Part shown: positions 28,823-40,324 of the stretch, in pieces
Numbering within the stretch: position 1 is the stretch's first letter
How the letters are laid out: the number at the start of each line of letters is the position of its first letter
Assembly: GCA_965228735.1 (NCBI GenBank)
Contig: OZ245838.1
Span: 5,120,001-5,184,000, forward strand
Direction of reading: 5' to 3'
Source: Planctomycetota bacterium
GTDB taxonomy: Bacteria; Planctomycetota; UBA1135; UBA2386
Length of the DNA: 64,000 nucleotides
Notes under the pieces: generated by a model
Told to the model about the DNA's origin: nothing
The model's database searches: none
Seen by the model: only the letters and a program-made list of their open reading frames with translations
Made by a program: the position numbers and the translations under genes

Positions 28823-30157
28823 ATGCCAGCGATCCGCCGCCTCGCCCTCGACCGCCGCACGTTCCTGCGCGGCTCGGCCACTGCTATGGCGTTGCCCTGG
28901 CTCGACGCGATGCGCCCCGCGTTGTCGCCGACGCCGGCGCAGCCGCGCCGCGCGCTGTTCATCTTCTCGCCCAACGGCGTCGACATGCCGCGTTGGCGGG
29001 TCGATGGCGAGGGCCCGAGCGCGGAGCTGAACGAAACGCTCGCGGCGCTGCGGCCGATGCAGGATCGCCTGACGGTGCTGACGCGGCTCGCGATCGACGG
29101 TGGGTTCTCCCACGGCGACGGCCCCGGCGATCACGCGCGCGCAGCCGGCTCGTTCCTCACGTGTGCGCATCCCAAGAAGACGGCGGGCGCGGACATCCAC
29201 ACGGGGGTGTCGGTCGATCAGTGGATCGCGGAGCACGTCGGCGGCGAGACCGTGCTGCCGTCGCTCGAGCTCGGCATGTCGCGCGGCCGCAGTGCCGGCA
29301 GCTGCGACTCGGGCTACTCGTGCGCCTACAGCTCGAACGTGAGCTGGCGCACGCCCACGACGCCGGTCACGAAAGAGACCGACCCGCGCGCGGTGTTCGG
29401 CCGGCTGTTCGGCGACCCCGCAATCGCGACCTCGCAGGCCGCGGCGCGCGTGCAGCGGGCCCGCGATCGGTCCGTGCTCGACCTCGTCCTCGCGGACGCG
29501 AAGTCGCTGCAGCGTGAGCTCGGTCGGCAGGACCGCGCGAAACTGGACGCCTACCTGCAAGCCGTTCGCGAGTTCGAGGTGCGGCTCGGCAAGCTCGACG
29601 ACGAGCAGCCCGAGGTCGACCTGCCCGACGGGCTCATGAGCGAGGACCGCACGTATCAACATCGCCTCGGGCTCATGTACGAGATCATCGCGCTCGCGTT
29701 CGCGAGTGACTCGACGCGGGTCTGCTCGTTCATGCTCGGCAATGCCGGCAGCAACCTGAGCTATCGATTCCTCGACGTGCCCGAAGGCCATCACAACCTG
29801 AGTCATCACGGCAAGGACGCGCACAAGCGCAAGCAGATCGCGCGCATCGATCGCTTCCAGCTCGAGCGTTTCACGGCGTTCCTGCAGCGGCTCGCGAGCG
29901 AAACGAGCGGCGACGGCGATCTGCTCTCGCAGTCGCTCGTCGTCTGGGGCTCGGGTATCGGCGACGGCAACCGCCACAACCACGACGATCTGCCCGTCAT
30001 CCTCGCGGGCGAGGGCGGTGGCGCCGCGAAGGGCCGCCGGCACGCCGCGTTCCCGCGCCGCACGCCGATGGCCAATCTGTATCTGTCGATCGCGCGCGCG
30101 ATGGGGCGCACGGACGAGTCGTTTGCGGACAGCACTGGTCCGTTGCCGCTGGCGTAG
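28823..30157 (+). CDS. DUF1552 family protein
   Basis: RRTFLRG....ALPWLDAM N-terminus; CDSGYSCAY, HHNLSHH and GNRHNHDDLP. Confidence 0.88.
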   Translation: MPAIRRLALDRRTFLRGSATAMALPWLDAMRPALSPTPAQPRRALFIFSPNGVDMPRWRVDGEGPSAELNETLAALRPMQDRLTVLTRLAIDGGFSHGDGPGDHARAAGSFLTCAHPKKTAGADIHTGVSVDQWIAEHVGGETVLPSLELGMSRGRSAGSCDSGYSCAYSSNVSWRTPTTPVTKETDPRAVFGRLFGDPAIATSQAAARVQRARDRSVLDLVLADAKSLQRELGRQDRAKLDAYLQAVREFEVRLGKLDDEQPEVDLPDGLMSEDRTYQHRLGLMYEIIALAFASDSTRVCSFMLGNAGSNLSYRFLDVPEGHHNLSHHGKDAHKRKQIARIDRFQLERFTAFLQRLASETSGDGDLLSQSLVVWGSGIGDGNRHNHDDLPVILAGEGGGAAKGRRHAAFPRRTPMANLYLSIARAMGRTDESFADSTGPLPLA

Positions 30158-30270: not shown

Positions 30271-32229
30271 ATGACCCGCCTCCACTCCGCCGTGTTCACC
30301 GCGGCCCTGTTCGTCCCGCTCGCCGGCGCCTTCGCGCAGGGTGCGGCCACTGATGCGAGCACCACCCCGCGCGACACCCTGCGCGTCTTGCTCGTCGGCC
30401 ACGATCCCGCGAGTCCCAAGGTGCCGTTCCGGCAGCTCGCGAAGGAGCGCACGTTTCGCCTCTACCGCGAGCGCACCGCCGCGTTCGAGGCGCTGCTGCG
30501 CTACCACTTCGAGAACGTGGAGGTGGTCTACGGCGAGGACTACGTGCCGGCGATGTCCGAGACCGCCGATGTCACGATCTTCGACTGCCGACCGAAGGCG
30601 TTGAAAGAGGTCGTGCGCGAACCGAAGTATCGGCCCGCGGAGTACCTGCCGAGCGACTTCGATTCGCCCGCGATCCTCATCGCGGAGAACTCGCCGTGGA
30701 TCGGCGAGCCCGTCGGCAGCAAGTTCGACTGGCTTTGAATGTGTCTCGATGCCCACGCGCACGGGATGCGCGTCGACCACGAGATCTTCAAGACCCCGCA
30801 CGCCGTCGATCTGACCATCGAGGATCGGCCGACGCCGGCGGCCTACGGGCGGTATCACATGGGCGCGACGATGCCGATGTGGCGGGTGCAGACCGAGGGT
30901 TACCTCGAACGCAACGACATGCTCGTCGGCGTCGTGTCGAGCGACTCCGGCTTCCTCGACTCGCCCGACACCGAGTGGATCTCGGGCGGGGTGAACACCA
31001 AGCGACCCAAGGCGGTGGCGCTCGGGCGCCACGGCAACTTCTTCCACTGGGGTTTCGCCGCGTCGCCGACCTACATGACGGCCGAGGCCAAGCTCGTGTT
31101 CGTCAACGCGATCCACTACATCAGCAAGTTCGACGGCCAGGCGCCGATCGCGCGGCGCGAGCCCGGCGCGTCGACCCGTAACCGGATCGAGGACGCGCTC
31201 GCACGGATCTCGGAGAAGGGCTACGCCCGCGAGCTCGAGCAGCACCGCTACTTCGTCGAGCGCATCAAGGAACGCAACGCCGACATCCAGGCGCGGCTCG
31301 ATCGCGGCGAGGACGTCTCCGACACGGAGAAGCGCGTCCTGCAGAGTCGGGTGCCCGGGAAGCCCGGGCGCTTCGCCCCCGTGAAGCGCTACGTCGACGA
31401 CGAGGCGTGGTCCGAGATCCAGGACGACGAGGCCGCGATCCGACGCTACTTCGCGGAGCGGTTGCCGTTCATGCACAACGTGGGCCGCTACCAGCTCGGC
31501 GTCGACGAAGAACTGCGTGACTTCGGCGTCGGCAACGCGGACATCGCCCTGCTCGACCGCGCGGTCGCGGCGCTGCAGAGCGGCGAACGCGCCGACCTCG
31601 CGCGCAAGCTGCTCGAGCGCTACACCGACGAACGGTTCGAGACGGCGGGTGAGTGGGCTGCGTGGCTCGGTGCGAATCGCGAGCGGCTCTTCTTCACCGA
31701 GGTCGGCGGCTACAAGTGGCTCGTCGATACGACGGCGCCGCGATCGGCGAAGCCGTCGCGACAGGTGCGGGCGAGCGCGGCGCGCAAGATCGTCCTGGCC
31801 GACCGCGGCGATGCTGCGTCCGCGCCGACGAAGCTCGAACCGACTGGCGCCGACCCCGTCGTCGGCGCGGCGACGGTGCGCACGAAACAGGACGGCAAGC
31901 AGGAGGTCGTGCTGCGCGTCGCGATCCTCGACGGCTGGCACGGCTACCGCGACGTCCCCGACGGTTCGCCATACGTGCCGATGACCGTCGCGCTCGACCT
32001 GCCGGCGCACGTGAAGCGGGCGGGCGATTGGACGCTGCCCGCCGCGAGCCCGGCGCCCGAGGACCCGACGCTCACGCTCTACGAAGGCGAGATCGAGTTT
32101 CGCTGCGAGCTCGTCGGCCTCGTGCCGCTCGGCGGCAAGATCACGTGCAACCTGAGCTACCAGGTCTGCGACGAACAGATGTGCCTGCCGCCGGCGATGG
32201 AGTCGTTCGAGGCCGTGCGGGTTCGGTAG
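30271..32229 (+). CDS. Exported selenoprotein (U-x-C) with a C-terminal DsbD N-terminal-like domain; TGA 30736-30738 read as Sec
   Basis: Two abutting in-frame ORFs joined by TGA (DWL-U-MC-LDAHAH); SECIS-like hairpin; signal peptide only on the first part; C-terminal GWHGY...YQVCDEQMCLPP. Confidence 0.78.
30741..30780 (+). promoter_or_regulatory. Candidate bacterial SECIS element
   Basis: Upper stem ACGCGCA (30755-30761) / TGCGCGT (30767-30773) with loop CGGGA; lower pairing TCG/CGA and GTG/CAC; 23 nt between TGA and loop. Confidence 0.68.
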
Positions 32230-32391: not shown

Positions 32392-34614
32392 ATGACCCCG
32401 ACACCGCTCTCCGTGCTCGCGCGCCGCGCGTTCGTTCCGCTCGTTCTGTCGACCGTGGTTGCAGCAACGCCGGCGCAGGACTGGCTCAAGGCTCCGGTCA
32501 TGCTCGACGGCTCGCCCGGGTCGCTGCGGGTGGCCGGGGATATCGACGGCGACGGCGACATCGATGCGGTGCGCGTGTCCGGCGCGTCCCTCACGGTCGT
32601 GACGAATGACGGCAGCTGCCGATTCACCGAGGGCGCGACGTATTCGCTGCCGAGCACGGTCCAGGACATCGAGCTCGCGGACATCGACGGCGACGGCATT
32701 GCGGACCTGGTGGTCGGGGTCAGTGGCGTCGGCACGGGCCTGGTCGTGCTGCACGGCGCGGGCGGCGCGACGTTCTCGCCGCCGACCATCGTGCCCGTGT
32801 CGGGGGCGGTCGTCGGGCTCGCGATCGGCGACGCCAACGGCGATTCCCTGCCGGACGTCGCGCTGGCCTATCTCGATCCGCCTTCGCTGCAATACCGCCT
32901 GCTTTGGATGCACGGTGAGCCGACGCGCTCCTATGCGCTCGGGCAGTGGGTCAGCGCGGCGTTCGTGAACGCGATCACCACGCTCGATCACGACGGGGAC
33001 GGCGACGACGACATCGTGTTCGTCGACGACCTGATCGGCGGCGACGTCGTCATGGCAGAAACAGTGGCGGGGCAGACGAGCGCGCCCTTCGTGACCATGT
33101 CGAGTTCCAACGCCTACGGGATCGCGCTGCTGCCCTGCGACATCGACGGCGATGGCGACGAGGACCTCGTCTTCGGCAACCTGATCGCGAACGTGACGTT
33201 GACGCTCGGTTCGCTGCGCAATCTCGGCGGCGGGGCGTGGGCCGCGGGCCCGACGCAGACGCTGTCGGGGACGGCGTTCTCGAGCCTGTTCGCGGGCGAC
33301 TGGGACGGCGACGGCGATCAGGATCTGTGCCTGCGCCAGGGCCATTCGTCCGGATTCCCGGGTCGACACTACACCTCGCTGTTCAGCAACGACGGCACGG
33401 GCGTGTTCTCGCGCAGCTGGGACCACGTGATCTTCGGGCAGGCCGACTACGTCGGCGGCGTCGGCATCTTCGACCTCAACGGCGACGGCCACGCCGACTT
33501 CCTCGACGACATCGCGGCGTTCTGCGGCGACGGCACGCTCGAGGATCCGCTGCCTCGCCGTTCGGGGGCGCGGCGACCGATCGACTGGGACGGCGACGGC
33601 GACCTCGATGCGCCCGGTTTCCTCGGCTCGGTTTGGATCAACGACGGCACGGGCGCGCTCACCGAGACGACCTGGAACGTGCCGGATGTGGCCCCCCAGC
33701 GCTATCTCGGCGAGATCGGCTACGCCGACCTGGACGGCAACGGTCTGATGGACACCATCGCACCGCTGTTCGATCCGCCGCCGCTGTTCGGGCCGTTCGT
33801 CTTCCGCGAGATGCGGCGGCTCGAGGACGACGGTGATGGCGGATTCGTCGATCTGGGGCCCGCAGCGGCGCCGGGGCTGCAGATCACGGGGCCGGTGCTC
33901 GCCGACGATGTCGACGGCGACGGCGACGTCGATCTCGTCAACGACGAGGGTCTCTGGCTCGCGTCGGCAGGGGTGACGTTCGCGTTCGGCGGCCAGCCGT
34001 TCGCCGGCTGGGTGCCGGTCGCGATGGCCGATGTCGACGGTGACGGCGACCGGGACTTCCTCGCGCGACCGACCGGCGGCCACGGCGCCGCGATCCTGCG
34101 CCGCATCGGTCCGGCGTCCTACGCGGTCGAGGTGCTCGCACCGGCGAAGGACGGTGATGACGACGGAGTCGAGGTCGGACTCGAGAGCCGCGCGTTCGAC
34201 GGCTTCGCGGCCGGTTGGCGGCGGCAGTACGGCACCGGGGGGGCGGGTGCTGGTGGGCGACGGCCGGTGCTCGGCGCGGTCGGTCCGATTCGACCCGGCC
34301 TCGTTCCGGAACTGCGGCTCGCGCAGGCGGTCGGCGGCGCGTTCGCGATCCTCGCGGTCGCCGGTGCGGAGTCGAACCTGCAGAGCACGCTGGTGCCCGG
34401 GCTGACGCTCTACGCGTACCCCGAGCTGTTCTCGATCGGCTACGTGCTGCCGGGGCCGCTCGGGCGGCCCGGCGCGGGCGAACTCGACATCGCGTTGGCG
34501 ATCCCGCCCGGCCTGGGCGGTGTGCGGCTCTACTTCCAGGTGCTCGTGTTCGATCCGGCTGCCGGCTCGCAGCTCGCGCACAGCAACGGCTTGGAGCTCG
34601 TCGTCGGGCAGTAA
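32392..34614 (+). CDS. Secreted FG-GAP/VCBS repeat (integrin-like beta-propeller) protein
   Basis: Signal peptide; about ten D.DGDGD.D Ca-binding repeats. Confidence 0.88.
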   Translation: MTPTPLSVLARRAFVPLVLSTVVAATPAQDWLKAPVMLDGSPGSLRVAGDIDGDGDIDAVRVSGASLTVVTNDGSCRFTEGATYSLPSTVQDIELADIDGDGIADLVVGVSGVGTGLVVLHGAGGATFSPPTIVPVSGAVVGLAIGDANGDSLPDVALAYLDPPSLQYRLLWMHGEPTRSYALGQWVSAAFVNAITTLDHDGDGDDDIVFVDDLIGGDVVMAETVAGQTSAPFVTMSSSNAYGIALLPCDIDGDGDEDLVFGNLIANVTLTLGSLRNLGGGAWAAGPTQTLSGTAFSSLFAGDWDGDGDQDLCLRQGHSSGFPGRHYTSLFSNDGTGVFSRSWDHVIFGQADYVGGVGIFDLNGDGHADFLDDIAAFCGDGTLEDPLPRRSGARRPIDWDGDGDLDAPGFLGSVWINDGTGALTETTWNVPDVAPQRYLGEIGYADLDGNGLMDTIAPLFDPPPLFGPFVFREMRRLEDDGDGGFVDLGPAAAPGLQITGPVLADDVDGDGDVDLVNDEGLWLASAGVTFAFGGQPFAGWVPVAMADVDGDGDRDFLARPTGGHGAAILRRIGPASYAVEVLAPAKDGDDDGVEVGLESRAFDGFAAGWRRQYGTGGAGAGGRRPVLGAVGPIRPGLVPELRLAQAVGGAFAILAVAGAESNLQSTLVPGLTLYAYPELFSIGYVLPGPLGRPGAGELDIALAIPPGLGGVRLYFQVLVFDPAAGSQLAHSNGLELVVGQ

Positions 34615-34965
34615 CCGCTCGGGAGGCGACCGCGACGGGTGACCTCGCCGGGCTCGTCGTCGGCTGCCGGCGTCGCGAATGCTCCTGGATTCGCGGATGC
34701 GTTCTGGCCCGACCCGATGGCCCATGTCTTCGCTGCCATCGGGACGCAGCAGAGCGGCGTGCATCCGGCCGTGACGGGGCAGCAGAACGGCAATCCGGCG
34801 ATCGGTCTCGTCGGCCGCTGACGCCGCTGGATCGGCAATTGTCGCAGGAATGTGCCACTCGCAGCGGTGGCGCCCCGAAGCGATTGCGAACGGGCCCGGG
34901 CCGCTAGACTGCGGGGCCCGCTCGGCCGCCCGGCCGAGGTTCGACCCTCCCAAGAGCAATTGCCC

Positions 34966-37900
34966 ATGTCCCGTTCGCTGACCGCCTTGTCGGCGGTGTT
35001 GTCCGTCACGTTCGCCCTTTCCGCCACCGCCCAGCAACTGCCGGAGAGCTGGGCCGACCAACTCGACTGGCGCAGCATCGGCCCGTCGACGATGGGTGGC
35101 CGCATCATCGCGCTCGCCGTCTACGAAGCCGAGCCGTCCACCTGGTGGGCCGCGACGGCCTCGGGCGGGCTGCTCAAGACGACCAACAACGGCACGACGT
35201 TCGAGCATCAATTCGATCGCGAGGCCGTCGTGTCGATCGGCCACGTCGCCGTCGCGCAGTCCGACAAGAACGTCGTCTGGGTCGGCACGGGTGAAGGCAA
35301 CCCGCGCAACTCGGTCTCCTACGGCAACGGCGTCTACAAGTCGACCGACTCCGGCAAGACGTGGTCGCACATGGGGCTCGACGAGTCGTTCCAGATCGGT
35401 CGCATCGCGATCCATCCGGAGAACCCCGATGTCGTCTACGTCGGCGCACTCGGCCGCCTCTACGGCCCGAACGAGCAGCGCGGTCTCTACAAGACGACGG
35501 ACGGCGGCAAGAGCTGGACGCGGATGCTCTTCGTCGACGACAAGACCGGCGTGATCGACATCGACATGCATCCGGAGGACCCGGACACGCTGCTCGTCGC
35601 GACCTACGAGCGCGAGCGCGACGGCTTCGACACCAACGACCCGGCGAAGAAGTACGGCCCGGGCAGCGGCATGTGGAAGACGACGGACGGCGGCGCGACG
35701 TGGAAGAAGCTGACCGACGGTCTGCCGACCTGTGACTTCGGCCGCGTCGGCATCGACTACTACCGCAAGGACCCGAACGTCGTCATGGCGATCGTCGAGA
35801 GCGAGATGATCGCGAAGCAGCCCGAGGACGCGCCGTATCACGGTGCGGCCGTCGAGTCGGCCGATGCCGGCGTGCGCATCACGCGCGTCGAGCCGCAGCG
35901 GCGTCGCGGCGGCAGCCGCGGTGACCGCGGCGGCCGCGGGCGCGGTGGCGACGAAGAGGGCAGCAGCGAGGAGAAGAAGCCCGAGCCCACGCCCGCGAAG
36001 AAGGCCGGCCTGAAGCAGGGCGACATCGTCCTCGCCATCGGCGGTGAGCGCGTGAACACGCAGAGCGAGTTCGAGCGCGAGTGCCGCCAGCACAAGGCCG
36101 GCGACTCGGTGAAGTTCACGGTCGTGCGCGACCGCAAGGACCACGAGATCGTCGTCAAGTTCGGCAAGTACCCGGAGGGCACGCGGTCGCCGTTCACGGG
36201 CACGCTCGGCGGTCAGGCGGCCGACATGCAGGACCTGCAGGGCAAGAACGGCCACGAGTACGGCGGCATCTACAAGTCGACCGACGGCGGCGAGACGTGG
36301 AAGCGCATCAACACGCTCAACCCGCGGCCGATGTACTACAGCCAGATCCGCATCGACCCGAGCAACAGCGACAACGTCATGGTGCTCGGCACGTCACTCT
36401 ACCGTTCGACGGACGGCGGCAAGTCGTTCGACCGCGGTGCCGGTCGCGGCATGCACGTCGATCACCACGCGGAGTGGATCGACCCGAACAACGGTGATCA
36501 CATCATCCACGGCTGCGACGGCGGCGTGTACGTCACCTACGATGCGGGCAAGAACTGGGATCATCTCAACCACGTCGCGATCGGGCAGTTCTACCACGTC
36601 GGCGTGAGCAGCGACCGCAACTACCGCGTCTACGGTGGTCTGCAGGACAACGGCAGCTGGGGCGGCCCGAGCCGCACCGCGGGCACCGGCGCGCGCAACC
36701 ACGACTGGGTGCGGGTCGGCGGTGGTGACGGGTTCCGCTGCCTCGTCGATCCGGACGACAAGAACGTCGTCTACAGCCAGAGCCAGAACGGTCCGCCCGG
36801 CTGGCGCAACCTCGAGACGAGCGCGCGCGGCAGCCTGCGTTCGCGCGGTCGCGGCGGCAACCGGGAGCGCATCCGCTTCAACTGGGAGACGCCGTACATC
36901 CTGTCCGACCACAACAGCAAGATCGTCTACACGGCCGGCAACAAGGTCATGAAGTCGCTCAACCGCGGCGCGAACATGCAGGTGATCTCGCCGGACATCA
37001 CCAACACGGACCGGGGTTCGGCGACGGCGCTGGCCGAGTCGCCGCGCGACGCCGGCATCGTCTACGTCGGCACCGACGACGGGGCGCTGTGGGTGACCCA
37101 CGACGGCGGCGATGAGTGGATCGACTGTTTCGCCACGGGCGCGGGCGATCCGACCGAGGAAGCCGCGGCCGAGTCGTCGACCGAGGGTGGCCCCGCGGCC
37201 GCCGAGGACACGGCGTTCTCCGCCCAGCCGATCAACGAGCTCGTGCCCGGCCCGCGTTGGGTGAGCGAGATCGTCGCGAGCCGCTTCGACAGCAAGCGCG
37301 CCTACGTGACCCTCGACGGCCACCGCAGCGATGACGACGCGGCCTACGTGTTCCGCACCGACGACGGCGGCCTCAACTGGGAGTCGCTGACGGCGTCGCT
37401 GCCGGAGTTCGCGGGTTCGACGCGCACGATCTGCGAGGACCCGGTGAACGAGGACGTGCTCTACCTCGGCACCGAGTTCTCCGCGTTCGTGTCGCTCGAC
37501 CGCGGCAAGAACTGGACGCGGATGAACGGCGACCTGCCGACGGTTTCGGTGCACGCGTTCGCCGTCAACGTGCCGTCCGGCGAGATGGTCGCGGGCACGC
37601 ACGGTCGCAGCCTGTGGATCACGAGCGTCAACGAGATCCGCCAGATGACGAAGGAGGTGCTCGAGAAGGACATGCACTTCTACGAGCCCGTGTCGGCGAT
37701 CATCTGGAAGTCGGACCTGTCGACGGGCGGCACCAACCGGCGTTTCGTCGGTGAGAACCCGGGCAGCGGCGCGCGGCTCGTCTACCACCTCAAGAAGAAG
37801 GCGCGTTCGGCCAAGATCGAGGTGCTCGACAGCAGCGGCAAGGCGGTGCGCACGATGGAGTGTCCGACCGACGCCGGCCTGCACGCGGTGAGCTGGAACC

Positions 37901-38175
37901 TGCGCGGCCCGGCGCAGATCCCGGACGGCGCGAGCGAGCGGGCGCGGGAGTGGTACATGCGTCGTGGCGGCCCGCGGGTCGGCCCCGGCACCTACACGCT
38001 GCGCCTCGCGGTCGACGGCGAGACCATGACCCGCGAGCTCGAGGTCGAGATCGACCCCGACAACCCGGATCCGGTCTGGCTGAGCAACGAGCAGGCCAAT
38101 GAAGCCTTTCAGGCCGAGAACGGTACTCTCGATGGCGATGGCGAGGGCGACGAAGAGACTGACGGCGACCGCTGA
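34966..38175 (+). CDS. Secreted BNR/Asp-box (Vps10/sortilin-like) beta-propeller protein with an inserted PDZ domain
   Basis: WRSIGP..MGGRI; repeated S/T.DGG.TW Asp-boxes; VYGGLQDNGSW; PDZ-like TPAKKAGLKQGDIVLAIGG. Confidence 0.85.
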   Translation: MSRSLTALSAVLSVTFALSATAQQLPESWADQLDWRSIGPSTMGGRIIALAVYEAEPSTWWAATASGGLLKTTNNGTTFEHQFDREAVVSIGHVAVAQSDKNVVWVGTGEGNPRNSVSYGNGVYKSTDSGKTWSHMGLDESFQIGRIAIHPENPDVVYVGALGRLYGPNEQRGLYKTTDGGKSWTRMLFVDDKTGVIDIDMHPEDPDTLLVATYERERDGFDTNDPAKKYGPGSGMWKTTDGGATWKKLTDGLPTCDFGRVGIDYYRKDPNVVMAIVESEMIAKQPEDAPYHGAAVESADAGVRITRVEPQRRRGGSRGDRGGRGRGGDEEGSSEEKKPEPTPAKKAGLKQGDIVLAIGGERVNTQSEFERECRQHKAGDSVKFTVVRDRKDHEIVVKFGKYPEGTRSPFTGTLGGQAADMQDLQGKNGHEYGGIYKSTDGGETWKRINTLNPRPMYYSQIRIDPSNSDNVMVLGTSLYRSTDGGKSFDRGAGRGMHVDHHAEWIDPNNGDHIIHGCDGGVYVTYDAGKNWDHLNHVAIGQFYHVGVSSDRNYRVYGGLQDNGSWGGPSRTAGTGARNHDWVRVGGGDGFRCLVDPDDKNVVYSQSQNGPPGWRNLETSARGSLRSRGRGGNRERIRFNWETPYILSDHNSKIVYTAGNKVMKSLNRGANMQVISPDITNTDRGSATALAESPRDAGIVYVGTDDGALWVTHDGGDEWIDCFATGAGDPTEEAAAESSTEGGPAAAEDTAFSAQPINELVPGPRWVSEIVASRFDSKRAYVTLDGHRSDDDAAYVFRTDDGGLNWESLTASLPEFAGSTRTICEDPVNEDVLYLGTEFSAFVSLDRGKNWTRMNGDLPTVSVHAFAVNVPSGEMVAGTHGRSLWITSVNEIRQMTKEVLEKDMHFYEPVSAIIWKSDLSTGGTNRRFVGENPGSGARLVYHLKKKARSAKIEVLDSSGKAVRTMECPTDAGLHAVSWNLRGPAQIPDGASERAREWYMRRGGPRVGPGTYTLRLAVDGETMTRELEVEIDPDNPDPVWLSNEQANEAFQAENGTLDGDGEGDEETDGDR

Positions 38176-38245: not shown

Positions 38246-40320
<2,075 letters not shown>

Positions 40321-40324
<4 letters not shown>

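Follow-up and report, generated by a model that had tools for sequence, protein, structure and literature searches.

The substrates of DsbD's N-terminal domain (DsbD-N) named in the available part of PMC3322552 are DsbC, DsbG and CcmG, and the same text reports that ScsB-alpha of Caulobacter reduces PprX only via TlpA. The CxC motif is a known redox motif with potentials of -130 to -200 mV, against -229 mV for nDsbD (available part of PMC3173608). Here we describe a gene (30271..32229, + strand) on a 64,000-nucleotide stretch of DNA from a Planctomycetota bacterium (contig OZ245838.1; this whole stretch is referred to as the window), in which a DsbD-N domain is joined to a domain carrying a U-x-C motif (U, selenocysteine, Sec). 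The Sec residue would be encoded by an in-frame TGA. The results presented below make it very likely that the product is one selenoprotein of 652 residues, which is predicted to be exported.

When the standard code is applied, the gene appears as an open reading frame (ORF) of 155 aa (30271-30738) ending at the TGA (30736-30738, inferred Sec156), followed without a gap and in the same frame by an ORF of 496 aa (30739-32229). A first-pass annotation of this DNA had described these two ORFs as a single gene; its coordinates were exact, and the strings KFDWL-U-M-C-LDAHAH, GWHGY and YQVCDEQMCLPP that it quoted are all present in the joined translation. Codon 156 is the single recoded codon of the gene (context KFDWL-U-M-C-LDAHAHG), and an ATG lies directly 3' of the TGA. 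The GC content at third codon positions was steady, 0.92 before the TGA and 0.93 just after it, and 0.91-0.93 over all four quarters tested. The protein database entry for the gene is a 487-aa piece that starts at Met166. The annotation had also argued for one gene from the lack of a ribosome binding site for the second ORF. By eye this ORF indeed has no clear Shine-Dalgarno sequence, but the argument is uninformative because neither start has one. No promoter-like or terminator-like site was found for the gene. The TGA was kept in whole-gene contigs of sequencing runs X2, X3 and X9, and since these come from three studies a sequencing error can be rejected. The X2 and X3 contigs hardly differ from each other, and the present DNA may derive from them; the X9 contig differs at 11 other places in the gene and not at the TGA; contigs of run X12 do not bridge the site.

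How the TGA is read was addressed by comparison with homologues, using sets from several scans that overlap in part. A scan of GTDB genomes, from which the best 80 of 264 loci were kept, gave TGA at the site in 24 loci, TGC in 32 and TGT in 24, and nothing else. Thus neither Trp nor any other non-Cys residue, named in the first-pass annotation as the outcome that would speak against a selenoprotein, was seen in any of these 80 loci. TGA loci were labelled Planctomycetota in 19 cases and unassigned in five, and the 56 Cys loci comprised 54 from Bacteroidota, one unassigned and one labelled Paenibacillus. The latter (L085) is a SusC-SusD-core locus with the neighbours of two Duncaniella loci (L080, L094), and is likely a mis-binned contig or a wrong label. 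A search with the joined protein found 199 homologues, and among the 120 listed 41 are full-length with Cys at the TGA position, 30 begin with the residue after U (U+1), 45 begin some ten residues further on, and four elsewhere downstream. Hence full-length Cys homologues exist, as had been anticipated, and 79 of the 120 listed matches begin at or after U+1, in agreement with the suggestion that databases split the gene. The sequence DWYCLCLDA, which the annotation had given for Bacteroidota proteins, was found at the site in Cys homologues.

Among close relatives, 32 of 61 genomes contained some match; of the 30 loci fetched, all 28 that cover the site have TGA and the other two match DsbD-N only. 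Phylum-wide, 34 of 251 genomes matched, many via DsbD-N only. The motif was found in 13 of 18 loci examined from this wider set, with TGA in all 13 (several of which repeat earlier genomes), and was not found by pattern in the remaining five. A further 87 representatives covering the site have Cys at position 156 in 86 cases. Both motif positions (156 and 158) are 99% conserved in an alignment of 147 rows, and Cys158 (30742..30744), the second residue of the U/C-x-C motif, is likewise Cys in 86 of the 87 representatives. The exception, P0259, has Arg at 156 and R-x-S in place of C-x-C; having lost the second Cys too, it is possibly an inactive variant. Reading of the TGA as Trp was ruled out, there being zero Trp codons in the 80 loci and in the 87 representatives. 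The Cys homologues occur in gut, soil and marine Bacteroidota, including cultured strains of Flavobacterium, Pedobacter, Mucilaginibacter and Phocaeicola.

The host genome encodes the machinery for Sec insertion that the first-pass annotation had proposed to look for: selA, selB and selD scored over the cut-off, selD with a TGA of its own, and a tRNA-Sec(TCA) (selC) is present. Of 61 relatives, 60 have selA, and so does the single Pirellulaceae genome with the TGA form that was tested, whereas selA was found in none of four Bacteroidota carriers of the Cys form. Judged from these comparisons, the gene almost certainly makes one protein through read-through of the TGA as Sec.

We also analyzed the RNA structure following the TGA. 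For a bacterial Sec insertion sequence (SECIS), the available part of PMC13188914 gives a loop of 3-9 nt, a stem of 4-16 bp, a G in the first two loop positions, a distance of 16-37 nt from the UGA and a minimum free energy of at most -7.5 kcal/mol. The hairpin ACGCGCA-CGGGA-TGCGCGT (30755..30773, + strand; loop at 30762-30766), above a predicted lower stem, agrees with all of these values, having a 5-nt loop with G in second position, 7 bp, 23 nt between TGA and loop, and -10.6 kcal/mol over 33 nt. The sequence, place and geometry described in the first-pass annotation were therefore right. Two observations nevertheless caution against trusting the hairpin of a single gene: folded alone it was no better than chance (z -0.7 against shuffles), and a similar loose filter was passed by 89 of 370 coding-like in-frame TGAs of the genome. 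The weight of the hairpin comes from its conservation. In 42 of the 51 distinct Sec sequences at least six of the seven pairs form in one and the same register, and in none of the 56 Cys sequences, a contrast that is inflated because the GC content differs (0.60 in the Sec set, 0.44 in the Cys set) and both sets are clustered by descent. The other nine Sec sequences also fold a hairpin there, but with the register shifted. Covariation was scored on 50 Sec sequences (duplicates L015 and L048 left out) with the structure taken from the query; 88.4% of cells were paired, 46 changes were double-sided, and the score of 0.378 was reached in 0 of 500 shuffles, slid controls giving 0.173 at most. Of the five covariation measures, however, the counts of covarying pairs and of pair types did not rise above shuffles (340 and 327 of 500). 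At the protein level the GG of the loop is seen as Gly at U+9, present in 45 of 51 Sec sequences versus 4 of 56 Cys sequences. It is also present in 9 of 12 Cys proteins from outside these loci that were picked for the tree, where it may be left over from a SECIS that has since been lost.

The tree, a quick one of 91 rows from which odd-numbered Cys loci and L048 were left out, requires at least four changes between Sec and Cys, three of them forced by well-supported branches, and its long, deep branches are all Sec. This suggests that Sec is ancestral in the family; the root is the midpoint and the sampling favours relatives of the host, so that the ancestry is suggested rather than shown.

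The joined protein is laid out as follows, all coordinates being on the + strand. Residues 1-22 (30271..30336) form a likely signal peptide, and hence the protein is likely exported: residues 6-22 have a mean Kyte-Doolittle value of 1.86, the maximum of the protein, an Ala-Phe-Ala motif is present, and homologues have hydrophobic N-termini as well. Residues 35-289 (30373..31137) constitute the core domain, which contains the U-x-C motif. A helical middle domain (residues 290-492, 31138..31746) is well modelled and gave no informative structural match; when it was folded alone and searched, the best Z was 5.2 and nothing reached Z 8, which does not show that the fold is new. Residues 534-647 (31870..32211) form an immunoglobulin (Ig)-like DsbD-N domain, as had been claimed from the sequence. 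It was the sole match in a Pfam scan (PF11412, E 2.7e-12, 47.2 bits with a cut-off of 25), it was the first match in Foldseek, and it matched the structure 2k0r with Z 10.4 and rmsd 2.7 over 111 residues; the pair C633-x4-C638 (32167..32184) aligned with the cysteines of the solved E. coli DsbD-N (YQGC..C). The NCBIfam scan gave no match for the joined protein, while 11 of the 41 Cys homologues matched DsbD weakly. The product is not a full DsbD (NF001419) with membrane and thioredoxin domains: no NCBIfam and no thioredoxin Pfam match was obtained, and no 17-residue window is more hydrophobic than the N-terminal one.

An AlphaFold2 model with Cys in place of Sec had a predicted local distance difference test score (pLDDT) of 90 and a predicted template modelling score (pTM) of 0.87, with a low-confidence linker at 492-516. 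In a wide structure search the best match over residues 35-289 was the ThuA-like protein 1t0b (Z 13.3, rmsd 3.4, 195 residues aligned), followed by 4jqs (Z 12.9), STM3548 (12.0), a Planctomyces protein resembling class I glutamine amidotransferases (GATase1; 11.7), HisH and GMP synthetase (both 11.3); Foldseek likewise gave glutaminase domains after DsbD-N. The core is thus predicted to have a ThuA/GATase1-like fold, which bears out the view that this domain does not resemble thioredoxin. The kinship is seen in structure alone: identity to the top-row structures was 8-14%, no Pfam match to ThuA-like PF06283 was obtained at E 0.1, and profile-profile comparison with five ThuA and five GATase domains of the host was not significant (the hhalign probability of 1.5% for ThuA being against a thin alignment of five sequences). 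An Atlas search with residues 25-500 of the Cys homologue P0110 returned clusters of hypothetical proteins (0.97) and ThuA and HEAT clusters (0.82-0.84), which we take as leads only. Conserved residues of the core are R68, D105, K151, H170, E235, G240, K244, R253, W260, G261, P266 and N279; a third Cys, at position 242, occurs in 56 of 147 rows, yet in 0 of 18 Sec-locus rows. In the model, U156 begins a short strand after helix 140-148, and the strand-helix turn at 134-148 contains no cysteine; F-x-W-G-F is found where glutaminases have the catalytic H-x-E, as mapped from secondary structure and conservation, not by superposition. The usual nucleophile position of amidotransferases therefore appears to lack a Cys, and the U-x-C motif would lie elsewhere.

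Fusions and neighbours associate the core with reductive partners. Among Cys loci with a called core ORF, DsbD-N is present in 55 of 55 (fused in 32, encoded by the next gene in 23), a figure that is inflated because the query used to rank the loci includes DsbD-N. Of the 56 Cys loci, 47 include SusC/SusD, 44 a TlpA/thioredoxin gene and 10 a full DsbD-like gene. Eight of the 80 loci have M16 peptidases, and trypsin-like peptidases are also found near Bacteroidota Cys genes. In four Sec loci (L037-L040) DsbD-N is at the N-terminus (three by profile, L037 by motif). TlpA-type fusions were seen in 6 of 18 long or unusual representatives (P0128, P0145, P0149, P0237, P0161 and P0012). P0161 joins the core to TlpA without DsbD-N, and P0012 (the gene of loci L016 and L048) combines the U-x-C core and DsbD-N with a region of helices and a TlpA-like domain, in which a second TGA occurs within W-U-PPC. 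In the host genome itself there are a gene resembling DsbD (C1:4263209-4265032) and four or more genes for exported TlpA-like proteins with U-x-x-C. In Bacteroidota, operon-like loci with the order SusC-SusD-TlpA(DUF4369)-DsbD-N-core-DsbD and up to five TlpA copies recur (L064-L122); no description of such loci was found in literature searches on SusC/SusD, TlpA, DUF4369 and DsbD.

Taking the motif, fusions and neighbours together, we favour, with moderate confidence, the view that the protein is an exported reductase of the thiol/selenol type, which would be supplied with electrons by DsbD and TlpA. The selenolate of Sec156 would attack an oxidised sulfur substrate and Cys158 would resolve the intermediate; the resulting ring would be re-reduced through Cys633-Cys638 of DsbD-N together with TlpA-type thioredoxins, with membrane DsbD as the source of electrons. 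We infer both the direction and the order of this flow; a step from DsbD-N to the motif is plausible because CxC potentials lie above that of nDsbD in the part of PMC3173608 cited above. As the best guess, the enzyme would act on imported peptides or on proteins of the envelope, at disulfides or oxidised sulfur that they carry, since the Bacteroidota loci hold a SusC/SusD importer and M16 or trypsin-like peptidases. This guess derives from the Cys branch only, because Sec loci have no conserved neighbours and none of them has SusC/SusD. That absence weighs against the reductase proposal, as do the lack of a detectable DsbD-N in 11 of 28 Sec proteins from close relatives and the many conserved non-cysteine residues of the core, which could serve another chemistry. 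In addition, a direct relay from DsbD-N to a non-thioredoxin fold is disfavoured by the DsbD-N substrates and the TlpA requirement of ScsB-alpha given in the available part of PMC3322552, and TlpA may be the direct donor to U-x-C. A complex prediction for the core (24-500) and DsbD-N (520-645) of the Cys homologue P0075 gave a score of 0.13, where the mark was 0.32, and was used neither way.

In a variant of the reductase proposal electrons would pass from DsbD to the fused DsbD-N, then to TlpA and only then to U-x-C, so that the two centres on the chain never touch. Its likelihood is counted within that of the reductase proposal, and we regard it as possible. Besides the Caulobacter precedent and the thioredoxin-type partners DsbC, DsbG and CcmG, the variant accounts for the TlpA/thioredoxin genes of most Cys loci, for the composition of P0161 and for the existence of core-only Sec members; it sits less well with the 12 of 56 Cys loci that have no TlpA in the DNA examined, in which every called core has DsbD-N fused, and with the occurrence of DsbD-N at the C-terminus, at the N-terminus or as a neighbouring gene, which suggests a dedicated partner. 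A more distant alternative is that the core is a hydrolase or transferase with Sec/Cys156 as covalent nucleophile, DsbD-N and TlpA merely keeping it reduced in the oxidising envelope. The fold matches to ThuA-like and glutaminase domains, the conserved E235, K244, R253, W260, H170 and D105, the peptidases and SusC/SusD near Bacteroidota genes, and the listing of a Sec-bearing amidotransferase with GxUxG (PMC13188914) all fit this idea. We nonetheless consider it unlikely, given that the second cysteine, kept in 99% of rows, is typical of a resolving residue, that, by the secondary structure of the model, U156 is on a strand beyond the cysteine-free turn, and that the glutaminase H-x-E appears to be replaced.

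Less probable still is that U-x-C binds a soft metal such as copper or mercury in the envelope. The protein would then be a sponge or chaperone for metal, linked to TonB-dependent uptake, and the reductive partners would keep its ligands free. In favour of this, U156 and C158 are separated by one residue on a single predicted strand, so that both side chains would point to one side, selenoproteins that bind metal and have CU or UxC motifs are on record (PMC13188914), and SusC/SusD are neighbours; the DAHAHG histidines, however, are below 85% conservation, and no metal transporter or regulator family recurs among 569 clustered neighbour ORFs. Finally, the TGA might be a real stop, separating two translationally coupled genes or resulting from a nonsense mutation. 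The ATG directly after it and the separate calling of the second ORF by databases would agree with this, and so would partial termination, which is expected at Sec codons in general. A stop would halve one predicted domain of the confidently modelled protein, however, and down to about 30% identity the codon is always TGA and never TAA or TAG; many relatives have a Leu, Thr, Ile, Gln, Glu or Asn codon instead of ATG after the TGA, and the site aligns only with Cys. We therefore hold a real stop to be very improbable, and retain the exported reductase as the preferred explanation.

As for the surroundings in the window, a DUF1552 (HXXSHH) gene with a twin-arginine-translocation-like signal is located directly upstream (28823-30157, +) and is beside the gene in 0 of 68 Sec loci. 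Downstream are genes for an FG-GAP repeat protein (32392-34614, +), a Vps10/BNR-repeat protein with a PDZ domain (34852-38175, +) and an S46 peptidase (38246-40324, +). In a locus of the same genus (L015) the Vps10 gene follows directly and the FG-GAP gene is absent. A link to these neighbours was rejected, because none of them recurs apart from the Vps10/BNR gene, which was seen at 2 of 68 Sec loci. For the host genome as a whole, about 20 selenoproteins are suggested by a loose scan, the majority of them with signal peptides. By their motifs we presume them to include four TlpA-like and five other thioredoxin-like U-x-x-C proteins, two deiodinase-like, two AhpD-like and two peroxiredoxin-like proteins, and small metal-binding-like proteins, one of the latter with two TGAs (C1:2372 and 2123, -). 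Two genes outside the window (C1:3065085, +; C1:5872224, -) encode signal-peptide proteins with FG-GAP-like repeats (by eye) and a TGA directly before Cys, in the contexts FANW-U-CIGMSPQF and VPIT-U-CLSFCPQF, with a hairpin in each; they possibly represent another uncatalogued selenoprotein family. The host lineage would thus export a large set of selenoproteins whose genes are mis-annotated.

Every year or two, further families of bacterial selenoproteins are reported. The present one comprises 421 or more clusters when grouped at 50% identity (E < 1e-30, fragments included), whose members are named hypothetical or after the DsbD-N tail in databases. In line with the proposal of the first-pass annotation that the family is undescribed, no counterpart was found among 119 prokaryotic selenoprotein families (2026, PMC13188914), those without a model being compared by name and motif only, and no Pfam or NCBIfam model covers the core domain. 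The family is unmentioned in the available parts of BSepDB (PMC13326102), SelCysML (PMC13745706) and deep-Sep (PMC12013277), and the available part of the BSepDB supplement contains no match for DsbD, ThuA or UxC. A description was not found either in literature searches on bacterial or Planctomycetes selenoproteins, ThuA and CXC-DsbD; unvalidated candidates from 44,000 genomes (Deng et al. 2026) could include the family. We conclude that it is probably undescribed. Sec marks a catalytic residue, and therefore one codon points to the active site of the entire family. The predicted fold would be new among bacterial selenoproteins and among envelope redox enzymes. A bolder scenario, which we put forward tentatively, is that an amidotransferase-type fold has turned redox and founded a new class of envelope oxidoreductases, whose Sec-x-Cys centre takes its electrons straight from a tethered DsbD-N and not from a thioredoxin fold. 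On this view Sec would be the ancestral state in Planctomycetota, with several later exchanges for Cys. The widespread SusC-SusD-TlpA-DsbD loci of Bacteroidota would serve to import sulfur-linked substrates and to open them by reduction, and the Cys form would be their missing terminal enzyme. These loci are testable because Cys homologues occur in cultured strains.

Compared with described systems, the protein shares individual features with several. The thioredoxin-like Sec.2 family (PF13192) and the SO_0444-family Cu/Zn efflux transporter (NF033936) likewise have UxC and Cys homologues (PMC13188914), whereas the present protein matches neither model, is predicted to have a ThuA/GATase1-like fold, and is soluble and likely exported. 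With ThuA-like proteins (PF06283; 1t0b, 4jqs) and class I glutamine amidotransferases it shares the predicted fold of residues 35-289; unlike these it has no Pfam match and no significant profile match, a helical insert of 200 residues, and a U/C-x-C motif in place of an elbow cysteine, which appears to be lacking. The selenoprotein related to the CTP synthase C-terminus (NF004836, GxUxG; PMC12013277, PMC13188914) belongs to the same amidotransferase fold class, but motif and position differ here, the model does not match, and no DsbD-N fusion is listed for NF004836. TsoB, a rhodanese/DsbD fusion with the motif UxxxxU (NF045694), is also a selenoprotein joined to a DsbD part; its model matches the middle of full DsbD neighbours and not the 652-aa protein. 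Caulobacter ScsB-TlpA-PprX and TlpA-fused methionine sulfoxide reductases (Msr), as presented in the available part of PMC3322552, similarly group or fuse an envelope thiol enzyme with DsbD-type and TlpA modules; here, by contrast, there is no peroxiredoxin or Msr match, Sec is used in Planctomycetota, and the context in Bacteroidota is SusC/SusD. E. coli nDsbD (PF11412) and ScsB-alpha have the Ig-like fold and the C-terminal cysteine pair in common with our DsbD-N domain, which differs in standing apart from DsbD's membrane and thioredoxin domains, in having C-x4-C rather than C-x5-C, and in being tied to a non-thioredoxin domain. CsgC, finally, is related to nDsbD and has a periplasmic redox CxC (available part of PMC3173608); in CsgC this motif is on the Ig fold itself, whereas in the protein described here a separate alpha/beta domain bears it, and the motif contains Sec.

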